DNA of 33,086 nucleotides from Thermoplasmatota archaeon (GCA_041658815.1 JBAZZN010000001.1:1-33086); one strand, 5' to 3'; shown: positions 876-27,239, numbered from the stretch's first letter. The notes: generated by a model from the letters alone, not told the origin. Translations and numbers: made by a program.

Positions 876-3358
876 GACGGGGCACCTCCGGTGTTGTGAC
901 GGCGGAGCCGGTTCGCGTTCGTGACGACGGTGAGGCTGCTCGCGGCCATCGCGGCGGCCGCGATCAGTGGGCTGAGGAGGAGCCCCACGAAGGGGTAGAG
1001 GATGCCCATCGCGATCGGGATGCCGATGACGTTGTACGCGAAGGCGCCCACGAGGTTCTGCCGCACGTTCCGCATCGTCGCGCGGCTGATGTCGATGGCC
1101 GTGACGACGCCCTGGAGCGACCCTCGGATGAGTGTGATGTCGCTGGCCTCGATGGCGACGTCCGTGCCCGTGCCGATGGCCATGCCGACGTCGGCTTGCG
1201 CGAGGGCAGGAGCGTCGTTGATGCCGTCCCCCACCATCGCGACCTTCTTGCCTTCGAGCTGGAGCTTGCGGACCTCGTGCGCCTTGTCCTCGGGAAGCAC
1301 TTCGGCGAGCACGCGGTCCACGCCTGCTTCCCTCGCGATGGCGGCGGCCGTCTTCTGGTTGTCGCCTGTGATCATGACGACCTCGATGCCCATCGAGCGC
1401 AAGCGCGCGATGGCGTCCTTGCTATCAGGCTTCATGGTGTCCGCGACGGCGACGATGCCAAGCGGCTTGCCATCGGCTGCGACGAACATTGGCGTCCGGC
1501 CTTGACTCGCGAGCGTCTCCCACGTTTGCGGAAGCGTTCCGAGGTCGATCTTGTGGTCGTCCATGAACTTGCGGTTGCCCACGAGCACGCGCCTGTCGCC
1601 GACCTTGCCTTGGACGCCGTGGCCAGGAACGGCTTCGAAGTCGCGCGCCTCGTCGAGCGAGAGGTTGCGATCTTGTGCGCCCTTCACGATGGCTTGGGCA
1701 AGGGGGTGTTCGCTTGCGCGCTCGAGGCTCGCCGCAGCGAGCAGGAGGTCGGCCTCGGCCACGTCAGGCGCCGGCACGACGTCCGTGAGGCTGGGCTCGC
1801 CCTTCGTGATGGTGCCCGTCTTGTCAAGGATGATAGCATCGAGCTTGCCGGCCGTCTGAAGTGCGTCACCGCTCCGGATGAGGATCCCGTTCTGGGCGCC
1901 TTTGCCGATGCCCACGGTAAGACTTGTGGGCGTGGCGAGTCCCAACGCGCAGGGGCAGGCTATGATGAGCGTCGTGACGAGCACGATGGTCGCGTAGCCA
2001 AGCGCAGGTTGGGGGCCGAAGTCGAACCAGATGACGAAGGCGATGATGCTCGCGATGATGACGGCGGGGACGAAGTAGCCACTCACCGCGTCCACGACGC
2101 GTTGGATGGGCGCCTTGCTTCCTTGCGCGTCCTGGACCAAGCGCACGATGTTCGCAAGCGCCGTGTCCTTGCCGACCTTCGTGGCGCGGAAGCGGAGCAA
2201 GCCGTTCTTGTTGATGGTCGCACCGATCACTTCGTTGCCGGGTTTCTTGTCCACGGGTATGGATTCGCCCGTGATCATGCCCTCATCCACTGCGCTCTTC
2301 CCATCGATGACCACGCCATCAACGGGGAGCTTCTCCCCCGGGCGCACGATGACCTCGTCGCCGACGACGACCTCTTCGACATCGATATCGCGCTCTTGAC
2401 CATCGCGCACGACGCGCGCGGTCTTGGCACGCAGTCCGATGAGTTTTCGGATAGCTTCGCTGCTCTTGCCCTTCGCCTTGACTTCGAGCGCGAGCCCGAG
2501 GACGACGAGGGCCGTGACGACGTCCGCGACGTCCCAGAAGACTTGTGCGAGGCTCGCGCTTGGGAAGAGCTGTGGCGCGAGGACCGCGACGGCACTGTAC
2601 GCGGCCGCCGCCGTGATGCCAAGCGCGATGAGCGTGTGCATGTTCGCACTGCGATGCTTGACCGCGCTCCAGGCGCCTGCATAGAATTGGCTTCCGCTGT
2701 AGATCATGACGGGGAGCGTGAGCAGGCCGAGGACGCCCCACGTGATGCGGCGCGTGATGCTCCCCTCTGGCATCCACGCCTGGAGCGCGGGAACCAGCTC
2801 AGGGTAGCTGAGGGCGAGGACGGGGATGCTGATGACGGTCGCGAACCAGAACTTGCGCATGAGGCCCTTGTACTCGGCGTCGCGCTCGGCGTCCTGGAGG
2901 CTCGCTTCGTCCGCATGCTCGCGCGGCTTGGGGGTCTGCTTGATCTCATAGCCCGCGCTCGTGATAGCGCGCTCGATGCGCGCGATCTGCGTTCGCTTGG
3001 GATCGTACGCGACGTGAGCCGCATTACTGCCGAGGCTCACGCTCGCGGCGACGACGCCGGGCGTCTGGCGCAGCGCTCTCTCGATACTAGTGACGCAGCT
3101 GGCACAGGACATGCCTTGGATGGGAAGCGTTAGTTGGGCAGTGCCCGTGTGGAAGCCCGCTTTCTCGATGGATCGAGCGATCTTCGCGACGTCCGTCGCC
3201 TCTGCGTCGTAGTCAACGTACGCTTTGCATGTGGCAGGGTTCACGTGCGCGCTCTTGACGCCAGGCTGGCGCTGGATCGCGCTCTCGATGGCGCGCGGCT
3301 CGCAGCCCATGACTCCACGGACTGGCAGCACGCAATGCGCGAGCGCTCGTGTCGCCAT
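872..3358 (-). CDS. copA: Copper-translocating P1B-type ATPase
   Basis: 828 aa. One HMA domain has GMSCASCV, preceded by a degenerate HMA lacking CxxC. Also present: the CPC motif ([11 protein letters not shown]), DKTGTITKG, the HP motif ([10 protein letters not shown]) and [10 protein letters not shown]. Confidence 0.95.
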
Positions 3359-3826
3359 TCAGGTGACTCCCGTGGTCGTAGGACTATGCTTGGGCACGCG
3401 CTTGAGCGCGCGGAGGGAGAGCGTGAGCCCGATGGCGTTGCTGCCGATAGCGACAAGAAGGAGGGGCCCGCGCCAAGCAGCGAGCGCTGTCGCGAATATG
3501 CTGACGCCCGCGTAGGGAAGGATCGTGGGGAGGAAGTGGGCGCAGCAAGCGATCATGGCTGTGCTGGTGACGCCCCCGCTTGCACCCGCCATGGCGCCCA
3601 TGTGGATGCGGGCGAGCATTCGGAGGTACGCCCACAAGCCCACTTGCGCGCCAAACATGGGCACGAGGAAGACGAGGTAGGGCGCGTCGAGTGGGATCTG
3701 GCCCCTCGCGTAGGGCCAACCGCTCACCACGGTGAGGACACCAACGTATAGCGTGAGTAGGCCCGCCCCTGCGACGAGGCCGGTCCAGGTCGCACGTCTG
3801 CGGCTGGCGCGTCGTGCGTCCGTCAC
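3359..3826 (-). CDS. Integral membrane protein with a conserved Cys-Cys-x-His motif; possible metal-handling role
   Basis: About four predicted TM helices with the motif IACCAHFLP. GTG start at 3824-3826 sits directly after the stop of the upstream gene, and its own stop abuts the copA start. Function is inferred from context only. Confidence 0.6.
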   Translation of the reverse strand: MTDARRASRRRATWTGLVAGAGLLTLYVGVLTVVSGWPYARGQIPLDAPYLVFLVPMFGAQVGLWAYLRMLARIHMGAMAGASGGVTSTAMIACCAHFLPTILPYAGVSIFATALAAWRGPLLLVAIGSNAIGLTLSLRALKRVPKHSPTTTGVT

Positions 3827-4195
3827 TCAGGAGACCTCCAGCGTGACTTGCATGGCGTCGGCCGCGTGCCCGGGCAAGTCGCACAGGAACGTGAACGTCC
3901 CAGCGCGTGTCGGCGTGAACGTCGCGTCCGCGGATCCTCGTGGTTGGACGGTTCCCGTGTGGACGTGGTAGTCGTGGTTCGTTAGGGTGTGCGGTTGCGT
4001 TCCAGCGTTCTTGAGCTCGATGGTGACAGGCGCGCCCACCTTGGCTTGGATGAGCGAGGGCGTGAAGGCGAGCTCCTCGGCGCCGCCTGCCGTCACGACG
4101 ATGGCAGTCCCTCTTGGGGCTGGTGCGAGGCAGCCAGCGAGGATGGTGGTTCCAGCGAGGGGCAGCACGAGCAGAAGGAGCCTCGCGCGGCGCAT
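3827..4195 (-). CDS. Blue-copper (plastocyanin/amicyanin-like) lipoprotein
   Basis: Internal Met of ORF 3827..4459: MRRARLLLLVLPLAGTTILAGC (signal peptide plus lipobox). Cupredoxin ligand pattern: H..LTNHDYHV ... FLCDLPGHAADAM (C-x4-H-x4-M). Confidence 0.8.
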   Translation of the reverse strand: MRRARLLLLVLPLAGTTILAGCLAPAPRGTAIVVTAGGAEELAFTPSLIQAKVGAPVTIELKNAGTQPHTLTNHDYHVHTGTVQPRGSADATFTPTRAGTFTFLCDLPGHAADAMQVTLEVS

Positions 4196-4200
4196 CGGCC

Positions 4201-4608
4201 TCACACGACCTTCGAGTCGCCAGTCTGAGGCTCCCCAGTGAGCGCGAACGCCCCGCCGACGATGGCTGCGATCGCACCCACGATGTAACCGCCCATCGCG
4301 AGGAGGCTCACGGCGCCAGCCGCGATGCCGATCATGCTCCACAGGCGCGTTTCGCGGCCGAGGCGGACGTGATAGGCGGCGAGAAGGACGAACGCGCCCG
4401 TGACGAGGCTGATGCCGCCCATCCACCACACCATTCCGGTCGTCCAGCCAGCGTTCCACGCGCCGCCCATCATCCCTCCCATCATCCCACTCATGCTGGG
4501 CCAGAACGTGGTCATCATGAGGACCCCTGCGAGGCCGCCCACCAGGATGAGGAGGCCGCCCACGAGGAGGAGCACGAAGCTCAGGTCTTGGTTCTTGGTC
4601 GTCGTCAT
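4201..4608 (-). CDS. Met/Gly-rich integral membrane protein; paralog of 5746..6171
   Basis: Four hydrophobic segments and a loop SMSGMMGGMMGGAWNAGW that resembles Met-rich Cu(I) motifs. It shares AAYHV and GGYIVGAIAAIVGGAFAL with the 5746..6171 product. Confidence 0.65.
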   Translation of the reverse strand: MTTTKNQDLSFVLLLVGGLLILVGGLAGVLMMTTFWPSMSGMMGGMMGGAWNAGWTTGMVWWMGGISLVTGAFVLLAAYHVRLGRETRLWSMIGIAAGAVSLLAMGGYIVGAIAAIVGGAFALTGEPQTGDSKVV

Positions 4609-4705
4609 GTGATTCCTGGTCGAACCATCGCGTCCTTCGGGTTAAGGTGCACGGTCAAGGCGGACGCGTTGGATGATGCGCGTCCAACGAGCAGCCGCTC
4701 GCGCG

Positions 4706-5275
4706 TCAAGCGCCGTCGTCTGGAAGCCTGTCTCGGACGCTCCCAAAGATCTCGGTCCACATGTCCGAGTAGGCCGATAGGAGATCTGGCGTGGGCTGGA
4801 AGGCACGCAGGAGCGCGAGCACGCGTGGCGCGTCGATGAGCCGGAAGACGCGGCCGGTCTCGGGAGGTTCGCGCGTGATGATGCCCACGTTCTCCATGCT
4901 CTTGAGGTGGTGCGTCAGCGTCGCCTTGGTGACGTGCACGACCTGCGCAAGGTCACGATGCTGGGCGGACTCGCGTTCAAGCAAGTGCAGCGCGACAGCC
5001 AGGGGCACAGGCTGGCGTAGGAGGCTAAGCCAGCGTTGCTCTTGCTGCAGCAGTGTGGCGCGTGGGCCCGTCACGGGGAACAAGCGCCGATACCCTCCTT
5101 CCTGGCGAGTTGTGACTAGGTCGAGGCGTTCCAGCGCAGCAAGGTGGTACTCGATGAGGTGAGGGTTCGTGTGGATGCGGCGCGCGATCTCTCGCAAGTG
5201 CAACCCGGGGTAAGCTTGCACGAGATTGAGGATGCGCCGGCGCATGCCGGCATCCGGAGGGATGGCCTCGCTCAC
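4706..5275 (-). CDS. Transcriptional regulator with two tandem winged-helix (ArsR-like) domains
   Basis: ILNLVQAYPGLHLREIARRIHTNPHLIEYHLAALERLDLV, then a second wHTH: HRDLAQVVHVTKATLTHHLKSMENVGII. The C-terminal PTPDLLSAYSDMW is shared with paralog 25287..25817. Start is ambiguous: GTG at 5275 or ATG at 5245; the longest ORF reaches 5362. Confidence 0.75.
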   Translation of the reverse strand: MSEAIPPDAGMRRRILNLVQAYPGLHLREIARRIHTNPHLIEYHLAALERLDLVTTRQEGGYRRLFPVTGPRATLLQQEQRWLSLLRQPVPLAVALHLLERESAQHRDLAQVVHVTKATLTHHLKSMENVGIITREPPETGRVFRLIDAPRVLALLRAFQPTPDLLSAYSDMWTEIFGSVRDRLPDDGA

Positions 5276-10065: not shown

Positions 10066-10911
10066 GTGAAGTTAACCTATCTCGTGGCCTACCTGCCAGC
10101 CGTCCTCGGGACCCCCCTCAAGGGGCGCGTGCTTGAGCGGCTGCTCCGTCGCGGGCCGGGGACCGTGACGGAGCTCGCGGCCGACCTCGACGCGACACGT
10201 CAGCAGATCACGAAGGTCGTCGCCGAGCTCGCCCTCTTGGGCGTCGTTCGCGAGAAGCCTGGTGAGGATCGTCGTACGACGGTCGTGAGCATCGACGAGG
10301 AGCACCCCTTCGTCGAGCCGCTACGCGTACTCGCGATGGACGGCGGCACGTGGTACGAGACGCCCGAAGCGTGGCAGGTGCTCCTCGCGCGCCGCTACGG
10401 CCAGGATTGGTACATCGGCGGTTACGCCGCGATCCGTCGCGTCATGCAGCCCATCGACTTCGAAGCGCCCAATGTCCTTGCCAACGTCCGCGCCGCGGAA
10501 GGAAAGCTCGACGTCGCGAGCGCGCTCCAACGCGCGAGCGGCATCCAGCTCCAGGTGCGCCGCATCGAGCACATTCCTCCAGAGGTCGTCGCCGCCCGCG
10601 CGCGCGGCGTCGAAGTCTGGTTCGCGACGCCCGAACGCGGCTTCGTCGAAGCGTGGAAGCTCAAGGAGATCCCGCTCTACGGACTCATGCTCTGCCTCGT
10701 CCAAGGCCTCCACGAGGCCGTCCTCGACCCCACGAAGCTCATGAACGTCGCTCCCGCCGAGGGCATGCAAAGCGAGGTCCCGACCCTTCTCGCGGCAGCA
10801 CGCGAACGCCTCCCGCTCCGTGAGCTCGCCCGGCCGCTGAAAGCAACGCGCGCGCTAAAGCCGAGCGAAAAACAGGCCCTCGAACAGGCGATCAACACGG
10901 TGGTGGGCTAA
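10066..10911 (+). CDS. AbiEi-like antitoxin / wHTH regulator of a type IV toxin-antitoxin system
   Basis: N-terminal wHTH (GRVLERLLRRGPGTVTELAADLDATRQQITKVVAELALLGVV) plus a C-terminal domain. It lies directly upstream of, and abuts, an AbiEii nucleotidyltransferase gene. GTG start at 10066. An in-frame GTG at 10084 lies about 29 nt after the TATA-like TATTAT, so a leaderless mRNA is possible. Confidence 0.65.
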   Translation: MKLTYLVAYLPAVLGTPLKGRVLERLLRRGPGTVTELAADLDATRQQITKVVAELALLGVVREKPGEDRRTTVVSIDEEHPFVEPLRVLAMDGGTWYETPEAWQVLLARRYGQDWYIGGYAAIRRVMQPIDFEAPNVLANVRAAEGKLDVASALQRASGIQLQVRRIEHIPPEVVAARARGVEVWFATPERGFVEAWKLKEIPLYGLMLCLVQGLHEAVLDPTKLMNVAPAEGMQSEVPTLLAAARERLPLRELARPLKATRALKPSEKQALEQAINTVVG

Positions 10912-11871
10912 GTGGCGCGTGTCCTCCTGAACGCCGACGAGAAGGCCGCCGCCCGCGCCCTCATCCAGAAGACGTGGGATGCCCCCAACGTGACGCGCGA
11001 CGCGCTCACGAAGGCGGCCGACCCCTTCGGGGTCAACCCCCGCGAAGCCTACGCGAGCCTCCTCCACCTCGACACTCTGGACGCGCTGCGTGACCTGGAG
11101 TTTCTCGTGTTCAAGGGCGGCACGTGCGTCCAGACGTATCTTCCGCCCGCGTTCCAGCGCATCAGCGTCGACCTCGACTTCAACAGCCGATATCCGCACC
11201 CCAACACGGTCGAGAACGCGATCGTGGATCTCAATGCGCGCCTGCGTGCCGACGGCCGCGCCGCGACCATCCACGGCCTCGAGTACGGCTCGCTCATCCC
11301 CCAAGGTCACGACGAGCACACGGGGACCGTCGCATTCGCGCGCTACCTGCCCACGCCCTTCGACGAGACCGCGATCCTCGCCGGCACCGAGTTCCAAGCG
11401 CGACTCATCCGCGTGCAGATCAACGTGAAGCACCACGAGCTGCCGGCGCTCGATCCAATGCGACGCAAGGTCGAGTTCTTCATCCAGAAGACGCTCCAGC
11501 CTCGCCATGATATCAAGGTCGAGTGCGCGAGCGCCGCCGACCTCGAAGCGGATAAGATCCTAACCATCACGAAGAACGTCGGGGGCTTTGGCCGCGAGCG
11601 CATCAAGGACTTCTACGACCTTTTCGCCCTCAGTCGCACGAAGATCCCGCAGGACCGTGTCCGCGAGAAGCTTGACCGCGTCGCCAAACAGGCCAATGCC
11701 AAACGCGAAGACATCCTCAAGGGCGCGATCGAGCGCGCTGAGGACGTCCGCGCGCAGCACGCGACCGCGAAAGGTTTCGTCACCAGCGCCTGCAAGGACG
11801 GCAAGGTCCTCCTCGAAACGTGGGAGATGGAGATAGACGCGCTCCAAGAACGACTCCGCGCGATGCTCTGA
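10912..11871 (+). CDS. AbiEii/AbiGii-family nucleotidyltransferase toxin (DUF1814)
   Basis: FKGGTCVQTYLPPAFQRISVDLDF matches the family hallmark (KGGTAL..RFSEDLDF, a Pol-beta NTase G-G/S..DxD). A downstream KDFYDL motif is also present. GTG start sits immediately after the upstream stop. Confidence 0.85.
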   Translation: MARVLLNADEKAAARALIQKTWDAPNVTRDALTKAADPFGVNPREAYASLLHLDTLDALRDLEFLVFKGGTCVQTYLPPAFQRISVDLDFNSRYPHPNTVENAIVDLNARLRADGRAATIHGLEYGSLIPQGHDEHTGTVAFARYLPTPFDETAILAGTEFQARLIRVQINVKHHELPALDPMRRKVEFFIQKTLQPRHDIKVECASAADLEADKILTITKNVGGFGRERIKDFYDLFALSRTKIPQDRVREKLDRVAKQANAKREDILKGAIERAEDVRAQHATAKGFVTSACKDGKVLLETWEMEIDALQERLRAML

Positions 11872-11934
11872 CGCAGGCAAGACTCATTCTTCTGGGTCTT
11901 TCAGAAAGACTCGATCTTGTGAGTCTTATCGGCA

Positions 11935-12009
11935 TCAGTCGAACAGACGGGCGACGGCCCGCGCCGTCTCGTTCACGAAGCGCCGTCGCTCGCGGCGTCG
12001 AGTTTCCAT
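11935..12009 (-). CDS. Short ORF, copy 1 of a conserved C-terminal module (...RRRFVNETARAVARLFD)
   Basis: METRRRERRRFVNETARAVARLFD*. Its differences from copy 2 (13061..) in the conserved part are almost all at third codon positions. The longer ORF to 12138 crosses the att-like repeat, so I consider it unlikely. Confidence 0.4.
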   Translation of the reverse strand: METRRRERRRFVNETARAVARLFD

Positions 12010-12017
12010 TACCATGG

Positions 12018-12059
12018 TTTGCCCAACAAATCCGTCTGTCGAGGTTGAGTGGGGTGAGC
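12018..12059. repeat. att-like direct repeat holding the last 10 nt of tRNA-Phe plus its 3' flank
   Basis: 12047-12059 (gagtggggtgagc) is identical to 16099-16111. The upstream block ccaac-aaatccgtctgt matches ccaaccaaatccgtttgt at 16074-16091. Confidence 0.7.
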
Positions 12060-12203
12060 AAGCAGCCCCGATATCCGGATTTGTGCAGAGTGCGGCGGCA
12101 GGCCACTCCTTTCTGCAAGCGAGGATAGGTGGTTCCACTCTCCGAATTGCGGGCGAATACCCGTCCCCTATATGGCCGACCAGCGTGATCGCGCGGTGCT
12201 CGC

Positions 12204-13064
12204 ATGTCCATCCCGTCGGGGCCCGTGCACGCGCTCGACACGCACCCCATCTATCAGAACGCGCGACATACGCTACAAGGCCTGTTCACCGGTGAGGCGG
12301 ACGCCGAGCGAGCGGCGGCGCGGCTCGCAGATCAGAAGGGGAAGCTCGTCATCGCCTACACGCTCACGGCGCCGGACGGCTCCACGTTGTATGCGGTCGC
12401 TGCGCGCGAGCCTGTCGTTCGCCAACGACGCGCAAACATTCCGCACGACCGGACCGTTCCCTGGCAGGCAGTGAGGATCGCGCTAGACGCGTTCCGTAGC
12501 GCTGAGCGCGAGACGCGTGCCTCCGGCGCTCCGCTCCGGTGGTACAAGAAGCTCGAGGTTGACAAGCTTCGCCGCGTCCTCCTCGGATACGATTGGTCGG
12601 GCTCGAAGTTGGACGTTGCTTCGCGAATGATGAGCACCACCATCCTCACGCACCCGTTCCCGAACGCGAATCACCGGACAAGCATCACGCTCGCGAAGTA
12701 CTACCTGGCGAGCGAAGGCGTCCAATGGCCGCCTTATTCGCTTCGTGGTCGCGGCATCGACCGCTTTATCGCTGAGACCGAGCCCCATATCGTGCTGAGC
12801 AAATACCTCATCCAGCTGCGCCGCCGCCAGCCGCTGCTGTGCGTCGCACGAGCGGCTGGTTACACGGACATCGTCATCAAGCAAGGCTTCAATGCCAAGA
12901 TCGACGCCGCGGACCTCGAACTTTCCACCGAAGACATCGAGAAGAAGCACCAGGCGCGCTGCCGTGCGCTCATCGAAAAGATCGACGACGGAAAGAACGC
13001 GGACGAGCTCGGCCGCGAGGGCACGCGCGGCCTACGAGAATTCGTCGCGTGGTACTTCGGTTAA
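12204..13064 (+). CDS. Fic/Doc-family protein with a variant Doc-type motif and a long N-terminal extension
   Basis: THPFPNANHRTSITLA fits the Doc variant of the Fic motif, HxFx(D/N)(A/G)NKR, with His in place of Lys. At 286 aa it is far longer than the ~126-aa P1 Doc. Confidence 0.65.
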   Translation: MSIPSGPVHALDTHPIYQNARHTLQGLFTGEADAERAAARLADQKGKLVIAYTLTAPDGSTLYAVAAREPVVRQRRANIPHDRTVPWQAVRIALDAFRSAERETRASGAPLRWYKKLEVDKLRRVLLGYDWSGSKLDVASRMMSTTILTHPFPNANHRTSITLAKYYLASEGVQWPPYSLRGRGIDRFIAETEPHIVLSKYLIQLRRRQPLLCVARAAGYTDIVIKQGFNAKIDAADLELSTEDIEKKHQARCRALIEKIDDGKNADELGREGTRGLREFVAWYFG

Positions 13065-13318
13065 TCGAAGAGACGAGCGACCGCCCGAGCCGTCTCGTCC
13101 ACGTACGCCCGACGCGCCGGCGAAAGCTTCGGGGACCGAAACGGGACCCAACCTGGAGGGACTTCGTCAGCTGCCGCCTTCGGCGCCAACGTTGGGCGAA
13201 ACACCTTGACGTTCGAGAGTCGCGGAGCCTCGACGACTGCCCGGCTTGACCGGGCCACCCGACCGACCCCGACCTTGCGAGCGCTACGACTTCGGCTGGG
13301 CATGCACTTCACACTCAC
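13061..13318 (-). CDS. Small ORF, copy 2 of the ...YVDETARAVARLFD module
   Basis: 85-aa ORF ending SPKLSPARRAYVDETARAVARLFD*. It converges on the Doc-like gene with a 4-nt overlap. The pattern of synonymous differences from copy 1 supports coding. The start is uncertain. Confidence 0.45.
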   Translation of the reverse strand: MSVKCMPSRSRSARKVGVGRVARSSRAVVEAPRLSNVKVFRPTLAPKAAADEVPPGWVPFRSPKLSPARRAYVDETARAVARLFD

Positions 13319-13404
13319 CCCTATGCAGTCGATAGAAGGCTTAAGGTTGGGCCTTAATCGAAGGCAAATCGCGCCGTGAAATCCCCTGATAAGAGACTCA
13401 TTTC

Positions 13405-14067
13405 TTGAGCCGTATTGAAAGACTCACTTTTCCAAGCCCTGAACTTGGCGTCCGCAAGTTGGCGTACGCATGTCTCCCGGTGAGGCACGCGCTCGACTTC
13501 GACCCTCCATACGCGATCCCCGTCGTTTCGCCCAAGCTCACGAAGCGGCCGCCGCGCCCCTCGCCTACGATCATCTGGCGCGACTACGATCCGGAGGACG
13601 TTGGCAAGACCACCCTTCTCTTCCCGACCTGGGCCAAGGATGACCCCGACCAAAGCAAGCGCACGCTCCCGACGCTTCACCCGAAAGAGAGCCTCGCGAT
13701 CCTCGCCGCGACAGGAGACTCTCGTTTGACGGAGGCCGTCTTGCGCACCGCAAAGAAGCCAGATATCAAACGCGAAAGCGTCGCCACTGCCGCGAGGCGG
13801 CTCGCCATCGAGCCGCCCTCGCGCCGCCTCCACTATCCGAACTCAATTGTCTTGCTAAAGTGGCTCCTCCGGTTCGCGGAGACCGCGCGGGCGATGAGCG
13901 CCAAGGAGCGCATGACGCAGGATCTCCTCGGAGGCGGCCCCGCGGGATATCCGACGCGACGCATCGCGAAGTGGCGCGGCGCATGGTCGCCGAACTGGGT
14001 CCGCCATCGCCGAGCACGTCATTGTCACGAAGGCCGTCGCCTACGGCGACTGCCTCGGCAAGCATGA
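13405..14067 (+). CDS. Hypothetical protein (element cargo)
   Basis: 220-aa ORF with a TTG start and no recognisable motif. The Arg-rich C-terminal third may not be genuine coding sequence. Confidence 0.35.
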   Translation: MSRIERLTFPSPELGVRKLAYACLPVRHALDFDPPYAIPVVSPKLTKRPPRPSPTIIWRDYDPEDVGKTTLLFPTWAKDDPDQSKRTLPTLHPKESLAILAATGDSRLTEAVLRTAKKPDIKRESVATAARRLAIEPPSRRLHYPNSIVLLKWLLRFAETARAMSAKERMTQDLLGGGPAGYPTRRIAKWRGAWSPNWVRHRRARHCHEGRRLRRLPRQA

Positions 14068-14129
14068 CGCGCGACGGCCCGGGCCGTCTCGTTCACGAAG
14101 CGCCGTCGTTCGCGCGACAAGCGCGGCGC
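14067..14129 (-). pseudogene. Truncated copy 3 of the small-ORF module
   Basis: Manual translation gives APRLSRERRRFVNETARAVARH.... It lacks the LFD* end, has an in-frame TAG just upstream, and diverges from copies 1 and 2 exactly at 14066/14067. Confidence 0.4.
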
Positions 14130-14234
14130 CTAAGACTCCAGCTCAAAGAACATGCGCCCCAACCAGCGCCGATACGACCCTGCCCTCCAAACCGCCACGA
14201 AAGACCTTATGCATCTCCTCGACGACATCTGTAC

Positions 14235-14840
14235 GTGAGCCCGCGCCGAGCCCTCGCGCTCACCTTGCTTGCAATAAGTCTGAGCGGCGCGGTTGCATGG
14301 GTTCGACCACAGGGTTACGACGCTCCGGCCTGGTCGTTCCTCCTGCTTGTCGGCGTCATTGGCATTGCAAGCGGCGCTTGGAGCGCACTATTCCTGCCAT
14401 TGGCGGCTATTGAATTGCGGTGGCGCGGCGCACAGGTCGCAAGTGGACTTCTTCCGGCATTCGCGGTCGCGATCCCCGCCGAGTGGATGCTGAAGATGGT
14501 CGTCCGCGGACAGCTTGCCTCTGCGCCAACCGCCGAAATCCTTGCATCCTCGCGGGTAGAAGTGCTCCTCTACGCAGTCCTGCTTGTCGCAGGTGTTGTT
14601 GCCTGGTCGATTCACATCTACCGTGCGACAGCCGACATGCGGAGAGTCCTCTGGTGGAGTCCCACCTTGCTATTCCTCGTCCCGATTTCCGTTTGGGCGA
14701 CGCGGCTTGGCCTCCCAATGCTCATCGGCATCGCCACGCAGATCCTCGTCGGATTTGCATTCATCCTTGAAGCCCTCAGACCTCCAACGCGTCAACGCCT
14801 TCCGACGGCGCCAGGCGACACAATTGAGCCGCCGGCGTAA
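14235..14840 (+). CDS. Hypothetical polytopic membrane protein (element cargo)
   Basis: Internal GTG of ORF 13860..14840. From VSPRRALALTLLAISLSGAVAW onward it has 5-6 hydrophobic helices. The upstream 125 codons are Arg/Pro-rich and unlikely to be coding. Confidence 0.5.
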   Translation: MSPRRALALTLLAISLSGAVAWVRPQGYDAPAWSFLLLVGVIGIASGAWSALFLPLAAIELRWRGAQVASGLLPAFAVAIPAEWMLKMVVRGQLASAPTAEILASSRVEVLLYAVLLVAGVVAWSIHIYRATADMRRVLWWSPTLLFLVPISVWATRLGLPMLIGIATQILVGFAFILEALRPPTRQRLPTAPGDTIEPPA

Positions 14841-15040
14841 CTGCCACCGATGCCCAGCGCCGCGAGCATCGCCTTCGTCTCGGCGAGGACCTCCTGCTTC
14901 TTGCGATCCTGAATATCCTTCTCCGCATCCGGCGAGATCGGCCGGCGGCACCGCTGGCAGAACGTCGTCGTGTGCGGGTTCCGGTGCTCGCAGTACCGGC
15001 AGATGAGCTGCGAGAGTGCGGGCCCCGAGTGCTTGCCCAC
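14792..15040 (-). CDS. Zinc-ribbon domain protein
   Basis: CRYCEHRNPHTTTFCQRCRRPI matches the common zinc-ribbon pattern CxxC-x..NP..x-FCxxC. GTG start. It is in the same frame as the integrase ORF, three codons downstream including the TGA. Confidence 0.5.
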   Translation of the reverse strand: MGKHSGPALSQLICRYCEHRNPHTTTFCQRCRRPISPDAEKDIQDRKKQEVLAETKAMLAALGIGGSYAGGSIVSPGAVGRR

Positions 15041-15046
15041 GAGAGT

Positions 15047-15964
15047 TCAGCCCAGCTTCGCGCGCTCCGTCACCGCGCTGTGACGCCAGACGTGCGGGTT
15101 GCAGTCCTTCTTCAGGCCCGACTTCTTACCGGCGCGGTAGCACCACACGAGGAGCGAGTTGGGGCTCAGCCGCGTGCCGGGCGCGCGGCGGCTCCACGAG
15201 AACCACAACGGCGCCAATGGCTCGTTCTTCTTGGGGTGCTGGTCGATCCACGCCTTGAGGTAGTCCACGCAGTCGAAGACCCGGATGCGCCGCGCGCCCG
15301 TCTTGAGTCCACGCACGCCCTTGGAGAGCGTGAGGACGGCGCTCCAGATGCCGCCTTCGAGTTCCTCGAAGACGACGCTGCCCACGTTCAACGCGCAGAA
15401 TTCGCCCGCGCGGAACCCACTCTCGTACAAGACCGCGATCTCCGCCTTGTCCTGCACGCCCACATGCGCAAGCAGGAGCCGCGCGAGGTCCGCGCGCGTG
15501 ATGAGCGCGTCCGTCGGAATGTGGTCCTCGCTCCGCTTCACCTTGAGGCCTTTCGTCTCGGGCGGGTCCTGGTCGTCCGTGCCCCGCATCCACCGGAAGA
15601 ACGGCTTCAGGACTTCCTTGCGCTGCGCGAGCGTGCGAGGCGCAAGCAGGATCGGTTGCTCCGTGTCCGTCGTCGAGCCATCCACCTTGCGGCTCCGGAA
15701 GAGGCGCATGCTCTTCGCGTTGTTCACGTAGCTGATGACGTCGATCCTCGTCGACGCCTGCAAGTTCCGCATGCCGATGTGCACGCAGAAGCCGCGCAGG
15801 CAGTTCGCGTGAATCGTCAGCGTGCTTGAGCGAAGCCCGACGGCTTGGCGCTCTTGCAGCCACGTTCGCACGACGTCTCGGTTCTCACGCAGGGGGATCG
15901 TCTCGAGGATCCGCTCGATGCGTTCCCACACTTCAGCGTCTGTCTTCGTAGAGATGCTTGACAC
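15047..15964 (-). CDS. Tyrosine recombinase/integrase (XerC/D-like) lacking the C-terminal catalytic-Tyr segment
   Basis: N-terminal SAM-like domain. Catalytic domain has box I Arg (ESGFRAGE), a Lys hairpin (LSKGVRGLKTGARRIRV) and HxxR (HVWRHSAVT). The ORF stops 9 residues later (ERAKLG*), before the expected LGH...Y. Confidence 0.75.
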   Translation of the reverse strand: MSSISTKTDAEVWERIERILETIPLRENRDVVRTWLQERQAVGLRSSTLTIHANCLRGFCVHIGMRNLQASTRIDVISYVNNAKSMRLFRSRKVDGSTTDTEQPILLAPRTLAQRKEVLKPFFRWMRGTDDQDPPETKGLKVKRSEDHIPTDALITRADLARLLLAHVGVQDKAEIAVLYESGFRAGEFCALNVGSVVFEELEGGIWSAVLTLSKGVRGLKTGARRIRVFDCVDYLKAWIDQHPKKNEPLAPLWFSWSRRAPGTRLSPNSLLVWCYRAGKKSGLKKDCNPHVWRHSAVTERAKLG

Positions 15965-16067
15965 GACTCGTCACGTTTCCCGCGGACGGGAAGACCATTG
16001 CGACGCGCGTAGGCAGGCCACTCATCGAACCGCGAGTCGAAAACTCGCGGCCGAGTATGTATTTGGC

Positions 16068-16111
16068 CTTTCGCCAACCAAATCCGTTTGTTCTGTATGA
16101 GTGGGGTGAGC
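16068..16111. repeat. att-like direct repeat overlapping the 3' end of tRNA-Phe copy 1
   Basis: Partner of 12018-12059: a 13/13 identical core plus a conserved upstream block. Confidence 0.7.
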
Positions 16112-16174
16112 CGGGCTCGAACCGGCGACCTCATGATCTTCAGTCATGCGATCTCCCAACTGATCTACCACCCC
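16102..16174 (-). tRNA. tRNA-Phe (anticodon GAA), intron-less, CCA not encoded
   Basis: Hand fold of GGGGTGG-TA-GATC-AGTTGGGA-GATC-G-CATGA-CTGAAGA-TCATG-AGGTC-GCCGG-TTCGAGC-CCGGC-TCACCCC-A. All four stems pair (7/4/5/5 bp), with U33, G37 and T-loop TTCGAGC. Confidence 0.9.
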
Positions 16175-16219: not shown

Positions 16220-16413
16220 CACGGTGAGCCGGGTTCGAACCGGCGACCCCGCGAGCGAAGCGAGCGGCGACGACGCGAGGCGCGCTTCAGCGCGCCGGTG
16301 CCCGGAGGCACGCGTCGGAGTCATGATCTTCAGTCATGCGATCTCCGGACGCGTCTGCGGACGCGTCCTCTCGCGCATCTGCGGATGCGCGATCCCAACT
16401 GATCTACCACCCC
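16220..16413 (-). tRNA. Second tRNA-Phe(GAA)-like gene with two large insertions (candidate non-canonical introns) and a divergent 3' acceptor end
   Basis: Collinear with copy 1 apart from four differences. There is a 49-nt insertion in the D-loop (within 16344-16395; the boundary is ambiguous by 3 nt). There is a 72-nt insertion at 16249-16320, between tRNA positions 44 and 45. The T-loop reads TTCGAAC. The 3' strand TCACCGT gives a G2:G71 mismatch. Confidence 0.6.
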
Positions 16414-16452
16414 AGTTGGCAGACGTCGGATTCCGCTTCCCGTATTTGAGCC

Positions 16453-27160: not shown

Positions 27161-27239
27161 GTTGGAGTCTTGGAGTCTTGGGGCCTTTGTGGGTCTTGGC
27201 GCCACACACGCCAAGACACGAAGACTCCAAGACACCAAC
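27161..27239. repeat. 79-bp palindrome built from inverted arrays of the octamer (A)GTCTTGG
   Basis: Left arm GTTGG-AGTCTTGG-AGTCTTGG-...-GTCTTGGCG, loop CCACACA, right arm CGCCAAGAC-...-AAGACTCCAAGACACCAAC. The outer 19-bp stem has one mismatch; the inner stem is 9 bp. It lies between the ABC ATPase and permease genes. Confidence 0.7.

Follow-up and report, generated by a model that had tools for sequence, protein, structure and literature searches.

In the Phd-Doc system of phage P1, the gene for the small partner Phd lies upstream of the gene for the toxin Doc in one operon, and the C-terminal helix of Phd folds onto Doc. In class I Fic systems of the VbhA-VbhT type, a separate small protein with the motif (S/T)xxxE(G/N) blocks the enzyme by one helix, and in type I pairs such as bsrG/SR4, as with dual-function RNAs that encode peptides, the genes lie tail to tail and the transcripts overlap at their 3' ends. 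Here we describe a small gene family, named sORF in this study, in a 33,086-nt stretch of DNA from a Thermoplasmatota archaeon (GCA_041658815.1, JBAZZN010000001.1:1-33086; "the window" denotes this whole stretch), where three copies of its tail lie on the minus strand. We consider it likely that the one intact sORF gene, which ends in copy 2, is paired with the convergent gene of Pfam family DUF8172 as its antitoxin-like or regulatory partner, and that copies 1 and 3 are relics.

By analogy, the closest functional parallels to the module would be Phd-Doc or Fic proteins controlled by a separate small inhibitor. DUF8172 carries the Doc-type motif HxFxNANxR (as HPFPNANHR), with a weak match to the DOC_P1 model and local fold matches; its partner is small and, as predicted, largely disordered, with a terminal helix that recalls the Doc-binding C-terminus of Phd, and both genes travel as a pair within toxin-module islands. 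Unlike Phd, sORF is convergent with overlapping stops rather than upstream in a shared operon, and it shows no sequence similarity to Phd and no recognisable DNA-binding domain. The DUF8172 toxin candidate also differs from Doc in its length of 286 aa, its beta-rich N-terminal domain, its C-terminal extension and the replacement of the motif Lys by His. In the manner of VbhA, one helix of a protein of some 50-80 aa could inhibit an enzyme with the Fic/Doc fold, but sORF lacks (S/T)xxxE(G/N), its invariant Glu being followed by T or S with no S/T four residues before, and gene order and orientation differ. The tail-to-tail arrangement is that of bsrG/SR4, whereas sORF encodes a protein under purifying selection and the large gene is enzyme-like rather than a small membrane peptide.

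At the level of the region, the locus resembles the stacked elements found at archaeal tRNA genes, with a tRNA-Phe anchor, a partial copy of the tRNA 3' end, homologous arms at two junctions, a tyrosine integrase and, on the related contig L073, an islet. It differs in that the repeated block is a piece of a gene beside the core rather than the core of an attachment (att) site, and also in the erosion of most units and the decay of the integrase to a pseudogene. For DUF8172, a family of unknown function, the locus provides a conserved genetic partner and a toxin-antitoxin-like hypothesis. If the pair is a toxin-antitoxin system, its convergent layout with overlapping stops departs from the textbook type II arrangement and would be missed by searches for co-directional pairs.

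A small gene tail to tail with DUF8172

Copy 2 comprises the last 23 codons of the intact sORF (Table 1). On the minus strand it ends in PARRAYVDETARAVARLFD and a stop codon, inside the open reading frame (ORF) 13061..13318, whose end reads KLSPARRAYVDETARAVARLFD. In a six-frame hidden Markov model (HMM) search, it matched the sORF family profile at E=1.4e-23 over model positions 2-55, and it has the C-terminal helix ...ERR.FV.ET.RAVA..xD, with the stop right after Asp, that defines membership. Family members are 46-82 codons long and share the consensus M..LR.V.V..P ... W.PF..P.LS.ERR.FV.ETARAVAxMxD followed by a stop, in which Arg, Glu and the final Asp are invariant.

Comparison with the sORF of locus L049 yielded 17, 14 and 46 differences at first, second and third codon positions over 80 codons. 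The proportions of nonsynonymous and synonymous differences (pN and pS) were 0.199 and 0.652, and the corresponding rates (dN and dS), which the earlier note on this stretch, written from the sequence alone, had proposed to estimate across more copies in the genome, were 0.231 and 1.52, or a dN/dS of about 0.15. The DUF8172 genes of the same two loci, which are 80% identical, gave dN and dS values of 0.144 and 1.11. Because only the stop codons overlap the DUF8172 coding sequence, the conservation of sORF is its own. The gene ending in copy 2 is genuine: an archaeal protein-coding gene, so far unannotated, that is under purifying selection, and the conserved block is the part that encodes its C-terminal helix. 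A reading of the N-terminal part of the ORF as non-coding, based on its G+C content at third (GC3, 0.70) and second (GC2, 0.62) codon positions, was overruled by the comparative dN/dS. AlphaFold2, run on a seven-sequence alignment, predicted a single helix at residues 62-78 (block-mean predicted local distance difference test, pLDDT, 82-93) and disorder elsewhere, from which we infer a mostly disordered protein ending in one arginine-rich amphipathic helix.

The family proved rare and was almost never predicted by gene callers. No Pfam, NCBIfam or PADLOC model matched it; a profile search of 1.84 billion cluster representatives recovered only five members at E≤0.001, and a word-index search recovered four. 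Among 401 sampled genomes of the phylum, true matches were found only in the window's genome and in G002. Back-translated patterns of the peptide, (V[ND])ETARAVAR(LFD), found only the window's three copies in the 15 genomes of the order, including its own, and no match in IMG/VR; they yielded seven matches in GTDB genomes, all within unrelated bacterial proteins, and 11 in JGI metagenomes, all by chance. No candidate emerged when the final 40 residues of the ORF were used in a word-index protein search. The pattern scans failed because G, V or M stands at some of the positions in relatives and because the nearest of these is present only in Logan. Full-length homologues with a conserved reading frame, which the earlier note had suggested seeking elsewhere, were reached through the neighbours of DUF8172 and the HMM search. 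As a matter of method, synonymous-only variation in short repeats flagged a hidden gene, and the neighbouring gene, not exact back-translated patterns, led to its relatives.

A precomputed table listed 25 homologues of the gene at 12204-13064, all labelled DUF8172 (PF26511). The earlier note had raised co-occurrence with the Doc-like gene as a test, and sORF lay tail to tail with DUF8172 at 15 of 16 distinct homologue 3' ends: those of the window, loci L049-L054, L072 and L074-L076, and genomes G002 (two), G119 and G062. At the sole end without sORF, L055/L056, an insertion sequence (IS) transposase is inserted directly after DUF8172. The 4-nt overlap of copy 2 with the Doc-like gene, as first described, was correct: the two stops share TTAA at 13061-13064. 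An overlap of this length (TTAA, CTAA or CTAG) recurs in L049, L050, L051, L052 and L053, and 4 nt are likewise shared in L075 and L076. The stops are separated by 2 nt in L074, by 8 nt in G002, which belongs to the same order and has two sORF copies 2.16 kb apart, and by 33 nt in L054; L072 has an sORF of the L054 type, and in G119 and G062 sORF likewise lies beside DUF8172. The stop-to-stop distance falls between -4 and +8 nt in 13 of the 15 pairs (L054 is at +33 nt and L072 is unmeasured). One DUF8172 of G002 is 5'-truncated and its adjoining sORF is intact.

No other gene is conserved beside DUF8172; upstream neighbours differ at every locus examined. Pairwise identities of sORF and DUF8172 correlate across eight loci (Spearman 0.78, Mantel p=0.003); the two genes co-diverge. 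Homology with L049 (positions 146-1363) breaks off at 12141 on one side and at 13360 on the other, which makes the two genes a mobile unit of 1.2 kb found in different genomic contexts. The explanation by small partner proteins tied to each cargo gene, one of two that the earlier note had offered, was supported for copy 2, on the 15 of 16 ends and the co-divergence, and not for copies 1 and 3, which are truncated pseudogene tails. In G002, a unit of methyltransferase, DUF8172 and sORF is tandemly duplicated (L062, G002:C4, 5247-9397), the truncated DUF8172 being the second of the two. The defence island in which the unit lies also encodes a canonical Fic protein (HPFEDGNGR) and a restriction-modification pair of the DpnII-like kind.

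The motif HPFPNANHR (H150-R158), in which His replaces the Lys of the Fic/Doc motif HxFx(D/N)(A/G)NKR, is invariant in 23 DUF8172 homologues, and the fold was predicted by AlphaFold2 at pLDDT 93.6. Foldseek matches to Doc were local, covering about 85 columns (82-86), with P1 Doc taken from Phd-Doc complexes. No Fic profile in the installed Pfam library matched DUF8172, and a literature search returned nothing on DUF8172 and no description of a convergent Doc partner. The beta-rich residues 1-70 (window 12204-12420) gave a local Foldseek match to SPOR (RlpA), with probability 0.94 and a template modelling (TM) score of 0.55 on the target.

Codon-phase variation among the three copies

A repeat search returned one three-member family in the window, at 11946-11994 (reference), 13072-13120 (76%) and 14066-14114 (94%), with successive copies spaced by 1126 and 994 nt. 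The three minus-strand copies first reported were real (11935-11994, 13061-13129 and 14067-14129), and no further copy was found in the window's own genome. The minus-strand translation of copy 1 ends in RERRRFVNETARAVARLFD and a stop; that of copy 3 is APRLSRERRRFVNETARAVAR, and its homology is lost at the Leu codon, as the earlier note had stated.

Across the last 12 codons and the stop, copies 1 and 2 differ at six sites. Five are synonymous third-position changes (11938, 11944, 11950, 11956 and 11962) and the sixth is the stop codon, TGA versus TAA, a pattern already recorded in the earlier note and confirmed by our minus-strand codon comparison. Copies 1 and 3 differ at three of 49 nt (11950, 11962 and 11989), all third positions, and the fourfold-degenerate sites 11950 and 11962 have a different base in each of the three copies. 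Plus-strand coding of the block was rejected, because it would place these sites at the first or second position of a codon. The claim of selection on a peptide rather than on a DNA site was borne out, as the differences follow minus-strand codon phase; a plus-strand or non-coding repeat fails on this point. The synonymous-only differences among the copies date from a time when each belonged to a working gene.

The block contains a GC-rich palindrome, perfect in copy 3 (GACGGCCCGGGCCGTC), and the copies are spaced like cassettes beside a tyrosine integrase, features that would suit a non-coding DNA or RNA element recurring after cargo genes, such as an attC-like site, an att core or a terminator hairpin. 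We regard such an element as highly improbable. All differences in the ETARAVARLFD tail (last 12 codons and stop) follow minus-strand codon phase, copy 2 has two uncompensated stem mismatches, and the wobble bases of the palindrome do not covary among the three copies or eight homologues. The integrase targets tRNA-Phe and is dead, no Rfam model matched the block, and the protein is conserved at 15 further loci despite low DNA identity. The palindrome is incidental, because the codons for T-A-R-A-V (ACN GCN CGN GCN GTC) are self-complementary at positions 1 and 2, with their wobble bases facing each other in the hairpin.

Specific forms of such an element were also considered and set aside. 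An integron cassette was rejected in the absence of attC core sites (no GTTRRRY/RYYYAAC pair is present in the block) and with the integrase being a pseudogene beside tRNA-Phe rather than a functional IntI at attI. Duplication of an att core was rejected, as the three copies share no sequence with tRNA-Phe, and a terminator was rejected for want of a T-run after the hairpin.

Truncated copies, L073 and the role of sORF

Only 19-20 codons survive in copies 1 and 3, which are truncated relics. Copy 1 matched the family profile at E=1.3e-6 over model positions 37-55 with the correct stop, and copy 3 at E=7.1e-7 over positions 31-52 with the end missing; the frame of copy 3 is closed by an upstream TAG at 14130-14132. 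Their sequence (PRLSRERRRFVNET...) is of the subtype of L050, L051 and L073, unlike copy 2, and both are pseudogene tails of a sister sORF lineage. No DUF8172 remnant lies beside either, and neither stands tail to tail with such a gene.

The contig L073, from Logan SRR33270662, was found by searching with sORF. Its order is tRNA-Phe, 49 nt, an intact sORF, 3 nt, and the stop of a convergent 210-aa gene; beyond the latter come an overlapping gene for a helix-turn-helix (HTH) regulator, a cluster of AAGACNC motifs and a second GCTCACCCCACTT. This contig preserves the intact state of the copy 3 unit. The 210-aa gene had no Pfam, NCBIfam, PADLOC or PDB-sequence match and was not similar to AbiEii; it is a candidate nucleotidyltransferase, on the basis solely of a GS...DxD motif seen by eye. 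An intact paralogous pair of HTH gene and 212-aa gene lies on contig C167 (3500-4965) of the window's own genome. The L073 islet (2893-4867) is 1.9 kb long, lies at tRNA-Phe, has no integrase, carries the 13-nt direct repeats GCTCACCCCACTT at its ends, and contains only sORF, the 210-aa gene, the HTH gene and the promoter cluster; a HEPN/nucleotidyltransferase pair lies just beyond.

When the window and L073 were compared piecewise by blastn, the ORF 13405..14067 resolved into a chimera of two eroded genes (Table 1). The alignments of copy 3 and of the 210-aa gene share 6 nt (14066-14071), the pattern of a deletion junction; in that deletion the 210-aa gene lost its 3' end and copy 3 its last three codons. 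Copy 1 is an sORF tail fused directly to a relic promoter cluster; the entire operon that lay between the two is gone. Upstream of copy 3, no L073 homology was detectable beyond the PRLS codons, the alignment score being no better than for shuffled sequence. The description of the copies as orphaned 3' ends, the other explanation first offered, therefore fits copies 1 and 3; their cause, however, lies in deletions inside stacked modules, as the L073 comparison indicates, and not in repeated integrations. The statement that each copy sits immediately 3' of a convergent gene held for copy 2 with its 4-nt overlap; copy 3 does start at the stop of ORF 13405..14067, but that ORF is the chimera.

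Copies 1 and 3 are direct repeats, 94% identical and 2120 nt apart, and copy 3 keeps the upstream PRLS (four codons) and copy 1 the downstream LFD and stop, so that joined they would form a full family tail. They might on this account be halves of one sORF tail, a hotspot split by a 2.07-kb insertion (11995-14065, with a 49-bp target duplication) or by recombination with a circular element. We find this very unlikely. A deletion that joined copy 3 to the fragment of the 210-aa gene accounts for the left edge of that copy. The right edge of copy 1 recurs in the arm beside the live tRNA-Phe, so that this junction predates the locus, and between the two copies lie the neighbours native to copy 3, ordered as in L073, which does not suit an insert of foreign DNA.

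In the arrangement that we favour, sORF would be expressed from its own convergent promoter and its helix would neutralise or regulate the DUF8172 toxin candidate, much as the Phd helix acts on Doc. Because the stops overlap, both mRNAs must overlap at their 3' ends, and the effect of the protein may be supplemented by coupling through antisense RNA or transcriptional interference. Several findings weigh against this arrangement. The convergent layout differs from how type II toxin-antitoxin pairs are built, and the GC3 of sORF (0.70) is below that of neighbouring genes (0.79-0.89). The DOC_P1 match of DUF8172 in NCBIfam reached only E=7e-4 and 19.8 bits, below the cut-off of 38.65, and the Foldseek matches to P1 Doc (3kh2_A, 3dd7_A and 3k33_A) were non-significant, with probabilities of 0.35-0.63 and E>1. 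The PRLSRERRRFVNET... subtype faces DUF8172 in L051 and L050 but the unrelated 210-aa gene in L073 and, formerly, at copy 3, and the paralogous HTH and 212-aa pair on C167 has no sORF. As the same sORF subtype faces both genes, a helix fitted to one toxin would be unexpected at the 210-aa gene, unless the toxin had recently been swapped. The partner in L073 may reflect such a recent swap beside a retained sORF, or an sORF that acts regardless of toxin identity.

If sORF did act in this way, it could be a toxin-agnostic guard of cassette 3' ends, with the convergent transcript serving as antisense RNA or roadblock and the helix having a generic role such as RNA binding. Nearly the same tail lies opposite two unrelated genes, DUF8172 (L051, L050) and the 210-aa gene (L073, copy 3), and stop-to-stop spacing is kept whatever the partner, at +3 nt for the 210-aa gene of L073 and within the range given above for DUF8172. 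The L073 sORF starts 49 nt behind tRNA-Phe, which leaves no obvious room for a promoter, and the RERRR-type helix may be comparable to arginine-rich RNA-binding peptides. We nevertheless consider a guard of this kind unlikely, as a partner other than DUF8172 occurs in only one lineage (L073 and the window relics), sORF co-diverges with DUF8172 as a specific pair would, and the paralogous operon on C167 does without it. An equally doubtful extension would make sORF a new archaeal form of toxin control, placed stop to stop with unrelated toxin families, combining an antisense transcript with an arginine-rich helix, and with its tail serving as homology for cassette exchange in tRNA-linked islands.

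The tRNA-Phe island and its motif clusters

The pair of sORF and DUF8172 and the sORF relics lie in an island at tRNA-Phe, whose features are collected with the sORF copies in Table 1.

Table 1. Positions of the sORF copies, their neighbours and the island features in the window, with the corresponding positions on contig L073 where blastn aligned them.
Feature	Window position	Strand	L073 position	Basis and remarks
Intact sORF	13061..13303	-		80 codons from ATG 13303; alternative GTG start 13318
Doc-like toxin candidate, Pfam DUF8172 (PF26511)	12204..13064	+		286 aa; Pfam label on 26 homologues
Two-gene module, DUF8172 and sORF	12141..13360			blastn vs L049 146-1363, 74.6% identity; flanks not homologous
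Copy 1, sister-sORF relic	11935..11994	-		last 19 codons RERRRFVNETARAVARLFD and stop; N-terminal two thirds lost
Copy 3, sister-sORF relic	14067..14129	-		APRLSRERRRFVNETARAVAR; last 3 codons and stop gone
sORF, copy 1, as aligned	11932-11994		3174-3112	76%
sORF, copy 3, as aligned	14080-14131		3146-3095	86.5%
Eroded operon once faced by copy 3	13438..14071	+		HTH-regulator remnant and 210-aa gene fragment; blastn vs L073
HTH gene, N-terminal winged HTH (wHTH) lost	13438-13996		4313-3755	79%
210-aa gene fragment, 73 nt	13999-14071		3430-3358	92%
Motif cluster upstream of HTH gene	11880-11931		4686-4635	77%
AAGAC[TC]C inverted-motif cluster beside copy 1	11879..11931		4635-4686	77%; directly upstream of HTH gene start
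Distal end and core	12048-12083		4866-4831	86%
tRNA-Phe 3' remnant GCTCACCCCA (12050-12059) and arm	12018..12059	-		79% direct repeat with 16070-16111
Tyrosine integrase pseudogene	14792..15964	-		Pfam Phage_integrase
Possible fourth, strongly degenerate sORF-tail remnant (weak lead)	16022..16060	-		local alignment 11973-12058 vs 16022-16110
tRNA-Phe(GAA), island anchor	16101..16174	-		ARAGORN; Rfam tRNA 64.8 bits

The integrase carries an in-frame TGA at 15047-15049 and, relative to a 71%-identical orthologue in G012, has lost about 45 codons, among them those of the catalytic Tyr region. That orthologue, which is tRNA-integrating, has its catalytic Tyr in SVYTH, and the zinc-ribbon tail of the window integrase continues in frame. 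The tRNA-derived repeat pair lies at 12050-12059 and 16102-16111, comprising the 10-nt tRNA 3' end, with 32 nt of flank also repeated, and arm homology reaches the upstream half of copy 1 with indels (11973-12058 versus 16022-16110). Copy 1 is embedded in an attachment-site arm next to the tRNA-Phe 3' remnant. Island-free relatives have T-rich tRNA trailers that differ from either flank here, so the flanks are arms of elements and the region is built of integrated units stacked on one another; the arm at the live tRNA repeats the layout of copy 1 in more degenerate form, and that junction is therefore older than this locus. No sORF-like block was found in the arms of the integrase relatives G012 and G010. 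A split integrase ORF of the SSV type across the att site was also considered and rejected, because the two arms are not in the same frame and the integrase ORF is at another place. The region is a decaying island of stacked toxin-like modules at tRNA-Phe with a dead integrase, and it illustrates how such islands decay, with stacked units, precise loss of operons, and gene tails that survive.

The gene at 10912-11871 matched PF08843 AbiEii at E=8e-18 and PADLOC AbiEii models, and the gene before it (10066-10911), with weak HTH matches, is of the AbiEi wHTH type, the order of an AbiE type IV toxin-antitoxin pair. Copy 1 is not needed as a partner of AbiEii, because the AbiEi/AbiEii pair is complete without it. 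The earlier note had placed copy 1 directly beside AbiEii; its end does lie 64 nt past the AbiEii stop, but the relic promoter cluster stands between them, and the setting is that of an integration arm.

The AAGACTC motif had been reported near each copy. It was confirmed exactly at 11879, 11906, 11921 (minus strand) and 14132, with one site at 13419 rather than 13417 and the one near 13394 imperfect (AAGAGACTC); over the window, 10 matches were found against 2.8 expected. In the cluster at 11879..11931, the promoter or operator of an operon of the L073 type survives as a relic. The octamer CAAGAC[TAC]C recurs in arrays, inverted around a short spacer, at no fewer than nine places in the genome, including window 27165-27227 and contigs C45, C49, C114, C160, C281, C284 and C332; the arrays look like operators of one DNA-binding protein, and the clusters beside copies 1-3 are of the same type.

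Upstream of the working tRNA-Phe is another copy that is broken (16223-16420, minus strand): two GC-rich palindromic insertions interrupt it and the last acceptor-stem bases are gone. The window also contains an archaeal DUF63 gene. On contig C95 of the same genome (3250-3620), another tRNA precedes what is left of a related integrase, a truncated N-terminal fragment; the TTCCCG...CGGGAA hairpin just upstream of its start codon is the one also seen at window 15977-15992.

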